Shown here piece after piece: positions 5,384 through 14,682 of a stretch of DNA of 64,000 nucleotides. The notes under the pieces are model-generated. The model was not told where the DNA came from. It was given only the letters and a program-made list of their open reading frames with translations, and searched no databases. Each line of letters opens with the position of its first letter. Positions within the stretch are counted from its first letter, which is position 1. Origin of the DNA: Candidatus Saccharimonadales bacterium (GTDB lineage Bacteria; Patescibacteriota; Saccharimonadia; Saccharimonadales; DATKHC01); assembly GCA_035510465.1 (NCBI GenBank), contig DATKHC010000001.1, forward strand, positions 6,799-70,798. The letters run 5' to 3'. Both the position numbers and the translations under genes were made by a program.

Positions 5384-6901
5384 ATGCAAGCTAACGAAAA
5401 AATTGGCCAACTTATTTACCAAATAAGGCAAGAGCGAGGCTTAACTCAATCCGAGTTCGCCAGCAAACTTGGCACCAGCCAATCAGCCGTTAACCGAATT
5501 GAGCATGGCCGACAAAACTTAAGCCTTGATACTCTAGCTAGAATTAGCGACGTCTTAAATAAACAGCTAATTAGCTTAGAAGGTACCGCTGTTAATCTTC
5601 GTATTGAGGGAGGTCGTGAGCTACACGGAAGCGTGGCACTAAAAACTTCCAAGAACTCTGCTGTGGCACTACTTTGCGCAAGTTTACTAAATCACGGGGT
5701 AACAAGATTCAAGGCCTTTCCAAGAATTGAAGAAGTCTTTAGGATCATCGAAGTACTAGAAAGTATTGGTGTATCTGTTAAATGGCTACCAGGTAACGAT
5801 GTTGAGATCCGACGTCCAGCTAAATTGGATCTTACTCATCTGGACGCAAAAGCCGCCCGTCAAACCCGGAGTGTTTTAATGCTAATTGGGCCTCTCATTC
5901 ATGAGGCGAATAACTTTAAAATTCCTTACGCTGGCGGTTGCAAACTAGGACGAAGAACCGTTGCGCCTCACTTGTATGCCCTGGAGGAATTTGGGGTAAA
6001 TATAGTTGCAACCAGTGGTCACTACAACGTTCAGGTTCACAGAAAAAACCCAGAGCCATTTGTTATGTACCAAACTAGTAATACCGCTACTAATAATGTG
6101 CTGATGGCAGCCGCTTCAACTGCAGCCAAAACCACAGTCCAAGCCGTTAGCGGGGATTACATGGTACAAGATCTTTGTTTCTTCTTACAAAAGTTAGGAG
6201 TTAAGATTGACGGGATAGGCAGCCATTTTCTAGAAATTACTGGGGTACCAAAAATTAAAAAGAATGTTACTTTCGCCCCTTCAGAGGACCCCATTGAGGC
6301 TATGTTTTTCATAGCTGCGGCCGTCGCAACTAATTCTAAAATCACGGTTGAGAGAGTCCCTTATAAATGGATAGGTCTTGAGCTTCTAAAACTGGATAAG
6401 ATGGGCTTAAAGCTCAAACTATCTAAGCCTTACAAGGCAAATAATGGTATTGTCGATTTAACTGATATAACTGTTGGAAAACACAATGGTGAGCTAAAAG
6501 CACTGGAGGATAAAATCGAGCCAAATCTTTATCCCGGCATAAACCCCGATAATCTTCCCTACTTCGTTCCAATCGCTGCTATGTGCAAAGGCAGAACCCA
6601 GATCCAAGACTGGATGTATGAGAACCGGGCAATCTATTTCACTGAAATGACAAAAATCGGCATGCAAGTTGAACTAGCCGATCCGCATAGATTGTTTATT
6701 GACGGTCCAACTCGTTTTTCGAGAGGGGATGTAGTCTGTCCACCCGCCCTAAGACCAGCCAGTTTGCTACTAATAGGTATGTTAGCGGCTAGGGGTGTAT
6801 CAACCCTTAGAAGTGTATACACAATAAACCGTGGATATGAAGATTTGGCCGAAAGACTAAATTCTATCGGTGCTCAAATAACTGTTTTACACGAGCTCTA
6901 G
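5384..6901 (+). CDS. murA: XRE-type HTH domain fused to UDP-N-acetylglucosamine 1-carboxyvinyltransferase
   Basis: Residues 1-65 are an XRE HTH (GLTQSEFASKLGTSQSAVNRIEHG). The rest aligns with MurA: KTSKNSAV (Lys22 region), GGCKLGRR (Cys115 loop), YPGINPD (Asp305 region), and the C-terminal INRGYE. Confidence 0.85.
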   Translation: MQANEKIGQLIYQIRQERGLTQSEFASKLGTSQSAVNRIEHGRQNLSLDTLARISDVLNKQLISLEGTAVNLRIEGGRELHGSVALKTSKNSAVALLCASLLNHGVTRFKAFPRIEEVFRIIEVLESIGVSVKWLPGNDVEIRRPAKLDLTHLDAKAARQTRSVLMLIGPLIHEANNFKIPYAGGCKLGRRTVAPHLYALEEFGVNIVATSGHYNVQVHRKNPEPFVMYQTSNTATNNVLMAAASTAAKTTVQAVSGDYMVQDLCFFLQKLGVKIDGIGSHFLEITGVPKIKKNVTFAPSEDPIEAMFFIAAAVATNSKITVERVPYKWIGLELLKLDKMGLKLKLSKPYKANNGIVDLTDITVGKHNGELKALEDKIEPNLYPGINPDNLPYFVPIAAMCKGRTQIQDWMYENRAIYFTEMTKIGMQVELADPHRLFIDGPTRFSRGDVVCPPALRPASLLLIGMLAARGVSTLRSVYTINRGYEDLAERLNSIGAQITVLHEL

Positions 6902-6914
6902 TTTTAGATTTTAA

Positions 6915-6964
6915 CGCTTTCGTCCTTTTGGACTCATCAGCCTGAACATACATTCAGAGAGCAA
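6915..6964 (-). ncRNA. hammerhead ribozyme, type III topology (stem III open)
   Basis: Minus strand reads UGCUC^UCUGAA-UGUAUG-UUCAGG-CUGAUGA-GUCC-AAAA-GGAC-GAAA-GCG. Both catalytic cores are intact. Stem I is 6 bp and stem II 4 bp, both loop-closed. Stem III is 4 bp. The cleavage triplet is CUC, with C17 at 6959. Confidence 0.8.
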
Positions 6965-7052
6965 AGACAAGCAGAAAAAGTTGGTAAAGGAACAACCCAG
7001 GGGGCAGGATTGGGTTTTTCGCTTTAGTCAGCTCAATCTGCTGTCCTTGCTC
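6959..7052 (-). other. long imperfect RNA hairpin at the 3' end of the islet-1 transcript
   Basis: GAGCAAGGACAGCAGA (7052-7037) pairs with UCUGCUUGUCUUUGCUC (6975-6959). That gives 16 bp with one bulge and one G-U that is valid only on the minus strand. The inner hairpin is AACCCA/UGGGUU. Confidence 0.55.
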
Positions 7053-7095
7053 AGTACATGTCCTTCCGATAGGTTCTTTGTCTGTTGTTACCTCC

Positions 7096-7578
7096 TTAGG
7101 TAGTAGGCAAGGGACGGATTCCCTCGGGCCTGAAACTTGGCCTTGAGATGGCACGTCCTCGTTTTACGGTTCTTCCCCCGTGAGATCTCGTCGTCTTCCC
7201 GCGAGACGGTGTTGTTGGTTGCGTTGCCGCCTGATTGTTCTGTTGTTCCCCAAGCCTCCGAAGAAGCTCGTTTGCAGCAGATTGGCCATAGGCCTTGATG
7301 AAGCCCGTGAGGTGGATTTTTGTGCCTTCAAACCCGATATGGAGTTTGATTTTCCCCTTCCGGACCACTGTTACGCGGCCGCTGTGCTGCTTTGGTACGT
7401 AGCGCAGAGCTTCACCGGGTGTCATTTTCTTGAGCTCTCTTGGTACGAGGCGTCTCCTCACGTCATGCTGTCTGGTCGCGATGTCGGTCGCAATCAGAAT
7501 GGCATTCGTTCGGTGCCTTACAACTGGCTCTGGAATCTCCTTTGCGTCGGGCTCGATTTCCGATAACGTTGTCGTCAC
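7096..7578 (-). CDS. orphan hypothetical protein (160 aa, basic disordered C-terminal tail) in GC-richer islet 1
   Basis: GTG start preceded by GGGGAGAAGGG. The composition is protein-like, unlike the antisense ORF. No family recognised. Confidence 0.45.
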   Translation of the reverse strand: MTTTLSEIEPDAKEIPEPVVRHRTNAILIATDIATRQHDVRRRLVPRELKKMTPGEALRYVPKQHSGRVTVVRKGKIKLHIGFEGTKIHLTGFIKAYGQSAANELLRRLGEQQNNQAATQPTTPSRGKTTRSHGGRTVKRGRAISRPSFRPEGIRPLPTT

Positions 7579-7615
7579 GGTTTTGCCCTTCTCCCCTACC
7601 TAGGCTAACGGTGCC

Positions 7616-7702
7616 ATAGCTAAACTAAAGCTATCTGTGTTTCCTTTACACAGTGAGGTGAGGGGGAAGCCCGCAATTACTTGCGAACTTTCTTCTCACC
7701 TC
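7616..7702 (-). promoter_or_regulatory. structured 5' leader of the islet-1 ORF (three consecutive hairpins)
   Basis: Hairpins at 7655-7702 (GAGGUGAG/CUCACCUC enclosing CGCAA-GUAA-UUGCG with a GNRA loop), 7635-7653 (CUGUGU/ACACAG) and 7616-7634 (AUAGCU/AGCUAU). Confidence 0.4.
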
Positions 7703-7791
7703 ATGATTTCTGCTTGTCAAAATACATCTTTGGATACACTAGCAATATCTTCAAAACTTGAAAAATTTGTGTCTCAACAAAGAATTTAGTT

Positions 7792-7820
7792 AATCTACTC
7801 CCAACGTGCTTGTGTGTCAA
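7792..7820 (-). promoter_or_regulatory. putative promoter for the islet-1 transcript
   Basis: Minus strand reads TTGACA, 17 nt, TAGATT, immediately downstream of tRNA-His. Confidence 0.35.
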
Positions 7821-7828
7821 TAGGTCCT

Positions 7829-13738: not shown

Positions 13739-13815
13739 TGGTCGGGGTGGCCGGATTTGGACCGGCGACCTCAGCGTCCCGAACGCTGCGCGCTACCAAG
13801 CTGCGCCACACCCCG
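13739..13815 (-). tRNA. tRNA-Pro (anticodon CGG)
   Basis: Acceptor CGGGGTG/CACCCCG, anticodon arm CAGCG-TTCGGGA-CGCTG, CCA. Confidence 0.9.
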
Positions 13816-13860
13816 TACTTAGGTTGATAAGTAATTATATTCTCAGTTTAGGAGACAATC

Positions 13861-13882
13861 AAAAAAGCCATGGTCGCATGGC
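13861..13882 (-). terminator. rho-independent terminator (usable in both directions)
   Basis: GCCATG-GTCG-CATGGC hairpin flanked by an A-run on one side and a T-run on the other. Confidence 0.55.
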
Positions 13883-13985
13883 TTGGTTTTCGTCTTTTTT
13901 GGATCTAATTTTAAGTTATAAGATTTAACTTGAAGTTAAAACCGAAAAGATTAAGCGTTTCTTAGACTGATATTTATTTAACTAA

Positions 13986-14070
13986 CGAAAAAGTACGACA
14001 AGCAGACAGGGAGAAGAAAGGACAGTGTTGCCCAAAAAATTGTCCTTGCTATCTCCCCGCCTGTTTGTCG
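13986..14070 (-). terminator. very long imperfect hairpin plus U-tract at the 3' end of the islet-2 ORF
   Basis: CGACAAACAGGCGGGGAGAUAGCAAGGACA pairs with UGUCCUUUCUUCUCCCUGUCUGCUUGUCG. The G-U pairs are valid only on the minus strand. It is followed by UACUUUUUCG. Confidence 0.5.
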
Positions 14071-14088
14071 AGTCATCTCGATCTGAGG

Positions 14089-14364
14089 TTAATTGCTAAT
14101 GAAAGCAAGTCTCGGATCGACAATGATGTCGCCACGCGGTGTTCTTATAAACTTTGGGTCTTCTTGTTGGGTCGGCACAAATGGTACTGATTGCAAGATT
14201 GTGACTGTGTCACAGTGTTTGCAACGACCTACTAGCCGACACTCCATTTCCCCACCAAGGTGAGGTACGTCGTAACCAGGACAGTTGTGCTCGTCCTCTT
14301 CTGTGCAGAAAAGAACGACGTGATCAACCGAATGTACTACCTTGCAACCGAAGCAATCGGGCAT
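14089..14364 (-). CDS. orphan Cys-rich small protein (91 aa) in islet 2
   Basis: Eight Cys including CFGC and CKHC pairs, which looks like a zinc ribbon. AAAGGA lies upstream of the ATG. No family recognised. Confidence 0.45.
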   Translation of the reverse strand: MPDCFGCKVVHSVDHVVLFCTEEDEHNCPGYDVPHLGGEMECRLVGRCKHCDTVTILQSVPFVPTQQEDPKFIRTPRGDIIVDPRLAFISN

Positions 14365-14508
14365 TGGACTTTTACATCCTTTCTTGGCTATATCCCCAGA
14401 AGTTTTATATAGATAACAAGGAAAAGAACTAGGAATGTTCCTCTAGCTTTTCCCAAAATCTGCTTGTCAATGTTCATCGGAGCAAAGAAGCTCTACAACG
14501 AAGCTAAT

Positions 14509-14537
14509 ATGATAACACGATCTGTAATAAATGTCAA
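14509..14537 (-). promoter_or_regulatory. putative promoter for the islet-2 transcript
   Basis: Minus strand reads TTGACA, 17 nt, TATCAT, downstream of tRNA-Pro(TGG). Confidence 0.4.
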
Positions 14538-14605: not shown

Positions 14606-14682
14606 TGGTCGGGGTGAGAGGACTTGAACCTCCGACCTCCGCGTCCCAAACGCGGCGCGCTAGCCAACTGCGCCACACCCCG
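14606..14682 (-). tRNA. tRNA-Pro (anticodon TGG)
   Basis: Acceptor CGGGGTG/CACCCCG, anticodon arm CCGCG-TTTGGGA-CGCGG, CCA. Confidence 0.9.

Follow-up and report, generated by a model that had tools for sequence, protein, structure and literature searches.

A probable ribozyme-less member of a hammerhead-bearing family of transcription units between two tRNA-Pro genes of a Candidatus Saccharimonadales bacterium

Anatomy of the locus

The window analyzed here is a 64-kb stretch of a Candidatus Saccharimonadales metagenome-assembled genome (MAG) and contains ten tRNA genes. “Islet 2” designates the stretch between tRNA-Pro(TGG) at 14606-14682 (ARAGORN; 66.7 bits against the Rfam tRNA model), which is its upstream neighbor and one border of a variable slot, and tRNA-Pro(CGG) at 13739-13815 (ARAGORN and Rfam), its downstream neighbor. 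All features given for islet 2 and for its sister unit, “islet 1” (6909-7828), including the two tRNA genes, are on the minus strand. An earlier model-generated reading of the letters (the original prediction) had placed islet 2 between these tRNAs, as both programs confirm, and had described the islets as homologous elements, one with a live hammerhead ribozyme and the other with a dead copy.

Transcription of islet 2 is predicted to start from a sigma-70-type promoter at 14537-14509, TTGACA-17-TATCAT with an extended -10 TG. This promoter, which had been predicted at exactly this position, has 11 of 12 matches and is the best promoter-like site of the region; its position relative to the leader is the same as that of the TTGACW-17-TATAAT-like promoters of the family members described below. 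The conserved 5′ leader (14455-14512) was delineated with a covariance model, designated R2, with a hidden Markov model (HMM) built without the islets, and by folding. It scores 34.1 bits (E 7.5e-7) against R2, whose alignment includes islet 2 itself. In the fold, stem P1 is formed by 14496-14502 paired with 14473-14479 and encloses a small hairpin, after which the RNA is single-stranded up to the leader box UUGACAAGCAGA (14459-14470). This box, which is supported by conservation and compensatory changes across the family, is a perfect complement of a 3′ box located downstream of the coding region.

A second hairpin of the 5′ untranslated region (UTR), GGGAAAAG...CUUUUCC, folds at 14420-14453 and corresponds to the long-hairpin leader (GGAAAAG.../...CUUUUCC) that had been noted before; family members carry a different hairpin at this position (ACACRAGGUGAG...). 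Many units (e.g. L291, L292 and L320; L numbers designate loci from other genomes) have the element ACACRAGRUGRG about 8-12 nt past the leader box, where it makes the 5′ arm of the next hairpin. The equivalent position of islet 1 (~7690-7703) reads AUGAGGUGAGAAG, and islet 2 has the GGGAAAAG hairpin there without the element.

The cargo of islet 2 is an open reading frame (ORF) of 91 amino acids at 14089-14364. It is followed by a long imperfect terminal hairpin of ~27 bp at 13996-14070 (-43.9 kcal/mol, z = -6.6), which none of 200 shuffled sequences equaled in stability, and then by the U-tract GUACUUUUUCG; both the unusual length of this hairpin and the U-tract had been described correctly. 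In its 5′ arm the hairpin reproduces the leader box imperfectly. Its 3′ arm holds the 3′ box UCUGCUUGUC (13997-14006), which in the family lies ~3 nt ahead of stem III and the cleavage site of the hammerhead. In islet 2 the two boxes form ten Watson-Crick pairs out of ten (14459-14468 with 13997-14006) across a box-to-box span of 472 nt, where the family range is 300-1060 nt.

At the position taken in the family by the hammerhead and its trailer, islet 2 has a 111-nt spacer (13885-13995) with no detectable ribozyme and with an AT-rich hairpin at 13896-13948. The spacer is followed by an intrinsic terminator, AAGCCAUG-CGAC-CAUGGCUU and then UUUUUG (13859-13884), as the probable 3′ end of the unit; this canonical terminator (13865-13884) was absent from the original prediction. 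The end of the unit is marked by a promoter-like sequence outside it, TTGATT-17-TATAAT at 13834-13862 (10/12), which would serve tRNA-Pro(CGG).

Comparison of islet 2 with islet 1

Islet 1 was defined by models, ORF calls and folds. It comprises a promoter, a leader at 7705-7791 with its box at 7709-7720, an ORF of 160 amino acids at 7096-7578, a long hairpin at ~6959-7052 (-41.2 kcal/mol) with the 3′ box at 6966-6975, and a type III hammerhead which, measured with the box, extends over 6909-6976. In Rfam the hammerhead was recovered at 6912-6966 with 28.2 bits and an E value of 0.011, under the gathering score of 48.5 for RF00008. Against the covariance model R1, built from the box and hammerhead of 23 family sequences and used to search the window with filters off, islet 1 scores 69.9 bits, and its box plus hammerhead matches the islet-free family HMM with an E value of 1.7e-14. 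The live-ribozyme half of the original prediction thus stands, in that islet 1 carries a bona fide hammerhead. The islet-1 hairpin ends in ...UUUGCUC, which is the cleavage site, and this site coincides with the 3′ end of the hairpin in the fold. The ribozyme abuts the stop codon of a convergent 505-aa helix-turn-helix (HTH)/EPSP-synthase-like gene ending at 6901. The 160-aa protein is basic; its gene has a GC content of 0.55 and a GC content at third codon positions (GC3) of 0.57 in a window with a GC content of 0.41, and a word-based protein search with it returned self-matches only.

The relationship of the islets was assessed in several ways. A leader HMM built from other genomes only gave the two islets as its two best matches in the window, with E values of 1e-5 for islet 1 and 0.003 for islet 2. 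In the 64 kb there are exactly four copies of the 10-mer GACAAGCAGA, reverse complements included, namely in the leader of each islet and, as the reverse complement, in the 3′ arm of each long hairpin; a shared 10-mer with its reverse complement in both members was found in 0 of 20000 random segment pairs. A further copy of the box at 1540-1551, inside a histidine-kinase gene, was set aside as a chance match. When the islets were aligned with a sensitive local aligner, as had been proposed, the best match was a 20-nt leader block, GATGnAnnTTGACAAGCAGA, and exact TCTGCTTGTC matches were found after each ORF. Similarity along the whole length is weak: the collinear score was reached by 2 of 300 shuffles but by 11 of 170 real-sequence controls and is unconvincing, so the signal between the islets lies in the box pair and the leader and not in the whole length. 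On these features the two islets are homologous elements with the same architecture, as had been proposed.

Search for a hammerhead in islet 2

The other half of the proposal, that 13948-13970 is a decayed hammerhead, was not borne out. An Rfam cmscan of 13816-14100 (285 nt) gave no hammerhead at E ≤ 10. Model R1 matched islet 2 through the CUGCUUGUC box alone (13970-14007, 11.4 bits, E 0.59), with all 38 ribozyme positions deleted, and a box-plus-hammerhead HMM built without the islets likewise found only the box. When the 77 nt past the box were aligned, anchored at the box, to the islet-1 hammerhead or to the family consensus, 1357 and 1019 of 2000 dinucleotide shuffles, respectively, scored at least as well, as did 98 and 96 of 144 real-sequence controls. 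The candidate at 13948-13970 was rejected because these shuffles match or beat it; an alignment no better than shuffled controls is what the original prediction had itself named as evidence against the relic.

Folds of 13860-13960 and 13985-14085 gave simple hairpins only, and no three-helix hammerhead core with a cleavable NUH was seen in either. Neither CUGAUGA nor stem II is present in an arrangement built by hand around 13885-13960. Locally, the islet-1 ribozyme is matched best by UCCAAAAAAGACGAAA at ~13888-13903, a marginal match (8 of 1000 shuffles reach its score, uncorrected for multiple tests) that is recognized by no model and was discarded as a relic candidate. UUUCG just past the islet-2 box can pair with CGAGA just before the hairpin, in parallel to the family, where the stem III 5′ strand UUCGCUC pairs with GAGCGAA at the hairpin base. 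The parallel is no more than suggestive.

As judged from these model searches, islet 2 carries no ribozyme. The simplest reading would be that its ribozyme was lost rather than primarily absent. The islet-2 box pair is still perfect; either the loss would be recent or the pairing would have a role apart from cleavage.

The family in Saccharibacteria

Related units were first collected from metagenome contigs with the pattern TCTGCTTGTC N10-40 CTGATGA. This pattern was too loose, and most of the 240 loci were chance matches; after a regular-expression filter five real loci remained, one of them from the window's own organism and four from relatives (L047, L081, L091 and L092). The hammerhead pattern TTCGCTC N14-24 CTGATGAGTC N6 GACGAAAGCGA gave at least 120 matches in a collection of species-representative genomes and none in viral contigs. 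Of 80 records listed, 77 are named Candidatus Saccharibacteria, Saccharimonadales, Saccharimonas or Nanosynbacter, among them Nanosynbacter sp. TM7-053; among the matches listed, several genomes appear with two or more copies. The matches with other names are L258 (a Candidatus Nomurabacteria MAG), L330 (an Atopobium sp. MAG) and L291 (“bacterium”). The contig of L330 is only 1.7 kb long and looks like a binning error; L258, provided that it is correctly named, would carry the family into a further lineage of Patescibacteria.

The units have a fixed order. A TTGACW-17-TATAAT-like promoter is followed by the transcript start (A)UCAGCUUUYRUUGA, a variable hairpin, and UCCRAAAGYGYAYUUUGACAAGCAG, which ends in the leader box; the leader thus consists of stem P1 and the single-stranded UUGACAAGCAG. 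A structured 5′ UTR and the ORF come next, and then the CUGCUUGUC box, ~3 nt ahead of UUCGCUC, which is the stem III 5′ strand and the site of cleavage. Members share a conserved promoter, leader and box, and a box of the CTGCTTGTC type precedes most of 121 hammerheads. In the fetched loci a hammerhead lies within 3 kb downstream of 99 of 100 leaders, at a median distance of 592 nt, a proportion biased upwards by retrieval of these loci through the hammerhead itself. A ribozyme-less unit is therefore an exception. Terminator-like sites occur within 250 nt downstream of 52 of 114 family hammerheads (~46%, median distance ~100 nt), compared with 18% of random positions. Proximity to tRNA genes is not a family trait: a tRNA was found within 1.5 kb upstream of only 3 of 126 hammerheads.

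A second unit without a ribozyme was found in L267 (3955-4700, plus strand), with the leader box GACAAGGTAGTC, the 3′ box GACTGCCTTGTC and then GTACATTCCC. Its box pair covaries, and a terminator-like hairpin and T-run follow without a hammerhead. GUCGUAC past the L267 box resembles the sequence at that place in islet 2. Islet 2 itself has the leader, the complementary 3′ box, the long hairpin and the small variable ORF of the family but not the type III hammerhead ~3 nt past the 3′ box, so it was filed, like L267, as a ribozyme-less derivative and not as a full member. Taken together, islet 2 probably belongs to a family of small autonomous transcription units specific to Saccharibacteria and has lost the terminal hammerhead of that family.

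Selection on RNA structure

In the alignment of the family hammerhead, the paired fraction of cells is 99.2%. Compensatory changes are seen in all six pairs of stem I, on which the search pattern placed no constraint, and none of 500 shuffles reached the covariation score. In leader stem P1, 5 of 5 pairs have compensatory changes in the family alignment. Leader box and 3′ box change together around an invariant core, as in GACAAGCAGATG/CATCTGCTTGTC, GACAAGCAGG/CCTGCTTGTC and TGACAAGCAGACAT/ATGTCTGCTTGTCA. In the GACAAGU..GAGAGAGUU class the box helix goes on beyond a bulge, and one unit has a wholly different 14-nt pair, CGACAGACAACCAA/TTGGTTGTCTGTCG. Counted in fixed register, 6 of 13 box pairs show compensatory changes, G-U pairs are present, and the covariation score exceeds that of all 500 shuffles. 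Covariation in P1, the hammerhead helices and the box pair shows, at the level of the alignments, selection on RNA structure and not merely on sequence identity.

The terminal hairpin is a further trait of the family. In 73% of units the 150 nt upstream complement the box and the stem III strand far above shuffles (mean -23 versus -15 kcal/mol, mean z = -3.6). In the predicted folds of 75 of 77 units, base pairing of the cleaved product reaches to within 0-3 nt of its 3′ end, and islet 1 is alike. The hairpins have ~4 G-U pairs each, and the sense strand is the more stable one in 63 of 72 units.

Cargo genes

The islet-2 ORF is identical to the NCBI protein VMR34_00135. It had been credited with eight Cys; the ORF stands, and the count is seven (positions 4, 7, 20, 28, 42, 48 and 51), together with five His. 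A word-based protein search returned self-matches only, and an exhaustive phmmer search found 12 distant homologs (E 9e-8 to 7e-4), all from metagenomes. Residues H11, D14, C20, D24, C28, G30, H35, G38, C42, R43, C48 and C51 are invariant in this family, and C4, G6 and C7 nearly so, giving the common pattern CxGC...H..D...C...C.G...H..G...CR...CxxC. From this pattern the protein is probably metal-binding, with zinc as the probable metal. No match was found in Pfam, NCBIfam, PDB, PHROGs or PADLOC, and plasmid and phage collections searched by tblastn with the cargo family likewise contained none; the AlphaFold model is poor, with a predicted local distance difference test (pLDDT) score of 50.

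The gene content of the three homolog contigs examined is typical of Actinobacteria, the phylum that hosts cultivated Saccharibacteria. Judged by homology, the 91-aa ORF is a real gene, and small Cys-rich proteins of Actinobacteria are its distant relatives. A further proposal had been that homologs of the protein might be accompanied by hammerheads in other genomes; these actinobacterial relatives have no hammerhead nearby on the contigs examined. The conserved part of the unit, as the comparison has it, is the RNA framework and not the cargo gene. GC3 is 0.46 for the 91-aa ORF and 0.36-0.39 for neighboring genes; this raised value and that of the islet-1 ORF (0.57) point to acquisition from outside.

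The homologs lie directly downstream of genes with MT3502_N and DNA_pol3_alpha domains (L002 6001-6234, L003 6001-6237 and L004 6001-6237), a pairing which we take to resemble the imuA′-imuB-dnaE2 mutagenesis cassette. Gene calls of 73 aa lie just upstream in L003 (5524-5745) and L004 (5540-5761), the L003 copy being a paralog of the Cys-rich family, and L004 has a TraG-like gene upstream of the homolog.

Among 87 family units the cargo ORFs fall into 23 unrelated clusters, many of them small membrane proteins. The 132-aa cargo of L260 and L367 passes the cut-off of Pfam PF25186, Tad4, a type I Thoeris inhibitor (27.4 bits, cut-off 25), and is an anti-defense-type gene located in a unit on a bacterial chromosome.

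Folding models and proposed mechanism

In the family the 3′ box can pair either with the 5′ arm of the nearby hairpin or with the distant leader box, but not with both at once, and the 5′ strand of stem III is shared between the base of the hairpin and the ribozyme. Folding models were calculated for 75 units. With the 3′ region alone, stem III was present in the minimum-energy fold of 1 of 75 units, and the mean cost of forming it was 5.0 kcal/mol. When the real leader was added in trans, stem III was present in 40 of 75 units at a mean cost of 2.1 kcal/mol; with a leader whose box had been shuffled, the values were 6 of 75 and 5.6 kcal/mol. This fit of the models suggests that the ribozyme is licensed by the transcript's own leader.

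The following course of events is proposed. A strong sigma-70-type promoter would produce an RNA opening with the leader (P1 and the single-stranded UUGACAAGCAG) and running on through the structured 5′ UTR and a variable, often horizontally acquired small ORF. Near its end the RNA would form the 20-30-bp hairpin, whose 3′ arm contains CUGCUUGUC and then the 5′ strand of hammerhead stem III. Pairing of the leader box with the 3′ box would loosen this hairpin, whereupon stem III, and thus the ribozyme, could form. The type III hammerhead directly after the hairpin would then cut at its base, and once cut, the strand would refold into the hairpin and so close off the 3′ end. The RNA would thus end in a ribozyme-made 3′ end on a nearly blunt, very stable hairpin, which may stabilize the transcript. 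The islet-2 transcript would most likely end by intrinsic termination, either at the hairpin and U-tract or at the terminator at 13865-13884.

A broader reading is that the family is a phylum-wide modular cassette, in which one RNA chassis (licensing-box leader, terminal hairpin and 3′-end-forming hammerhead) is reused for dozens of unrelated, horizontally exchanged accessory genes, that the ribozyme fires only with the matching leader, and that islet 2 shows the pairing to have a function of its own. We hold this only tentatively and consider it somewhat doubtful as a whole. If it is true, the perfect box pair left in islet 2 after loss of the ribozyme would mean that leader-box pairing has its own function, and leader-dependent cleavage would serve to proof-read transcript origin, to close the mRNA with a blunt hairpin and to insulate neighboring genes.

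Several results weigh against the proposals above. Formation of stem III in islet 1 costs 12-13 kcal/mol with or without the leader, and in minimum-energy terms leader licensing fails for islet 1 itself; the co-fold of islet 2 keeps the local hairpin, with the leader box not paired with the 3′ box. Transcription, cleavage and 3′ ends are all predictions. No statistically credible ribozyme relic is left in islet 2, and the direction of change, a loss, is drawn only from the rarity of ribozyme-less units in a sample that was fetched through the hammerhead and is biased. In the fixed-register count, part of the invariance of the box core stems from the search patterns with which the sequences were gathered. 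Structure prediction performed poorly for the 91-aa protein, and metal binding is read from the Cys/His pattern alone. Twelve hammerheads with at least 3 kb of upstream sequence give no leader match, and a subclass of hammerheads has a different 5′ flank (L282, L311, L321, the second copy of L337, L346, L356 and L364). Note that this flank is ACGAATCTTAGCTGTA, or a one-base variant of it, in place of CUGCUUGUC, with no GACAAGC leader box near upstream; the subclass may represent a second genomic context for the ribozyme.

Alternative explanations

The units may be mRNAs that are translationally locked or belong to toxin-antitoxin-like systems, as in hok/sok, with 5′-3′ pairing keeping the RNA inactive until its 3′ end has been processed by the hammerhead; on this view islet 2 would be a variant stuck in either the locked or the open state. 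In hok-type type I toxin mRNAs, long-range pairing between the 5′ and 3′ regions is made through fbi and tac elements, and the units here are alike in that a short 3′-terminal element pairs with a 5′ element and that 3′ processing alters the fold. The 5′-3′ complementarity under selection, the predicted processed 3′ end and the many small membrane proteins among the cargo fit such a lock. The cargo is heterogeneous, however: it includes soluble proteins of 90-250 aa and the homolog of an anti-defense protein rather than small hydrophobic toxins, no antisense RNA is known, and the processing is predicted to be autocatalytic. As for islet 2, its 91-aa protein is soluble and Cys-rich and is not a hydrophobic peptide, where a type I toxin would be of less than ~60 aa (an antisense RNA was not searched for), and its leader box lies at least 95 nt upstream of the start codon without overlap with the ribosome-binding site. 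We therefore regard a lock as unlikely for the units in general; a hok-like lock is possible for some cargo.

A second alternative places the boxes at the level of DNA, as terminal inverted repeats of a miniature inverted-repeat transposable element (MITE) or mobile insertion cassette, or as the repeats of an invertible segment whose inversion, by phase variation, would reorient the ORF with respect to its promoter. An inverted repeat of 10-14 bp does flank each ORF, the cargo is diverse and often of foreign composition, and the tRNA-Pro slot is variable among relatives. But the partner helices contain G-U pairs and bulges, which are tolerated in RNA and would be mismatches in DNA repeats, and the arms differ among units yet are complementary within each, which fits pairing and not one shared recombinase. 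The repeats do not include the conserved leader with P1 and the promoter. In every unit examined the ORF, leader and hammerhead share one strand, with no flipped copy seen, and no target-site duplication was seen at islet 1 or 2, although no search was aimed at a transposase or invertase. A DNA-level origin of the boxes seems to us quite improbable.

The conserved flanks could also serve mainly as homology arms for exchange of cargo by homologous recombination in competent Saccharibacteria, with the RNA features being secondary. Unrelated cargo does lie between near-identical flanks in many genomes, sequence upstream of the promoter is also conserved between units, and natural competence has been reported for Saccharibacteria (PMC10187176, PMC10633639). 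The covarying pairs of P1, of the hammerhead stems and of the two boxes speak against this as the main role, as they reflect selection on RNA structure. We give the homology-arm explanation little credence as the main role; use as recombination arms may occur alongside the RNA functions.

A further reading, in which islet 2 would be an ordinary orphan gene equipped with promoter and terminator and would resemble islet 1 by coincidence or only in promoter-like words such as TTGACA, would agree with the weak collinear similarity (reached by 11 of 170 controls) and the relic at chance level, but the confinement of the 10-mer and its reverse complement to the two islets (0 of 20000 controls), the fit of the leader to an HMM from other genomes and the family layout of hairpin and 3′ box make it highly improbable, and unless these are composition artifacts the 10-mer and the leader HMM have already refuted it.

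Comparison with known systems

The ribozyme itself is of a known kind. The family hammerhead, including that of islet 1, shares with RF00008 (clan CL00010) the core CUGAUGA...GAAA, three covarying helices, the C17 cleavage site and an open stem III. It differs in its fixed context, with a box 3 nt upstream, a stem III strand shared with a hairpin and a leader hundreds of nucleotides upstream; islet 2 has no hammerhead at all. Martick et al. are said to have described, in 2008, discontinuous hammerheads in the 3′ UTRs of mammalian CLEC2 genes. Those resemble the present units in that a hammerhead downstream of the coding region defines or controls the 3′ end of an mRNA. The units here, by contrast, are bacterial and continuous, of type III, found on many unrelated genes of one phylum, and tied by base pairing to a 5′ leader and to a hairpin that would seal the new 3′ end.

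With intrinsic terminators the units share a stable hairpin at the 3′ end of the mRNA, and islet 2 has both a hairpin with U-tract and a canonical terminator. In the standard unit, however, the 3′ end is predicted to come from RNA cleavage and not from release by the polymerase, and the hairpin is far longer (20-30 bp). Retrozymes and viroid-like circular RNAs carry type III hammerheads, and complementarity between the ends of the RNA is a further likeness. Unlike these, each unit has one hammerhead and a promoter-defined 5′ end, for which a triphosphate and not a 5′-OH is expected; the units are chromosomal and protein-coding, without flanking direct repeats or any sign of circularization.

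Many unrelated small ORFs, each with an imperfect hairpin, recall integron cassettes, and a self-contained module of promoter, ORF and end recalls phage morons. Unlike integron cassettes, every unit has its own promoter, and its hairpin has G-U pairs on the sense strand; the hammerhead pattern has no matches in viral contigs. In islet 2 the hairpin arms CGACAAACAGG... / ...CUGCUUGUCG lack GTTRRRY/RYYYAAC core sites and the unit has its own promoter, which does not agree with an integron cassette; an integrase was not searched for.

The leader belongs to no family in Rfam 15, where nothing matched at E ≤ 10. No literature was found on a hammerhead or ribozyme in Saccharibacteria, TM7, Patescibacteria or Nanosynbacter, with subscription journals thinly covered, and an earlier description is possible. 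What appears to be new is that, on many unrelated genes within one phylum, the hammerhead comes in fixed combination with a leader, a box pair and a sealing hairpin.

Hammerheads occur widely in bacteria, for the most part with unknown biological roles; the family makes their purpose a testable question. Nanosynbacter is a genus with cultivated members, and the family is present in a genome of that name, Nanosynbacter TM7-053. The units also mark accessory genes of reduced episymbionts, including relatives of genes from actinobacterial hosts and one homolog of a phage anti-defense gene. Islet 2 would be a natural ribozyme knockout of the unit and can reveal which functions of leader and boxes survive without cleavage.

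The tRNA-Pro slot in related genomes

The slot occupied by islet 2 was compared among relatives by synteny, using protein homologs and contigs; the ABC1 kinase is 65-71% identical in related Saccharimonadales. A search of genome contigs for loci related through this kinase found nothing. The leader is absent from the slot in the related Saccharimonadales examined. In L008 (8587-9681) the slot holds a Band_7/SPFH gene, in L005 (5963-9703) a Band_7 gene, a 154-aa gene and an AAA ATPase gene, and at ~9554 in L010 tRNA-Pro(TGG) stands alone with other genes beside it. Since the same slot contains different genes in different relatives, it is a site of gene turnover.

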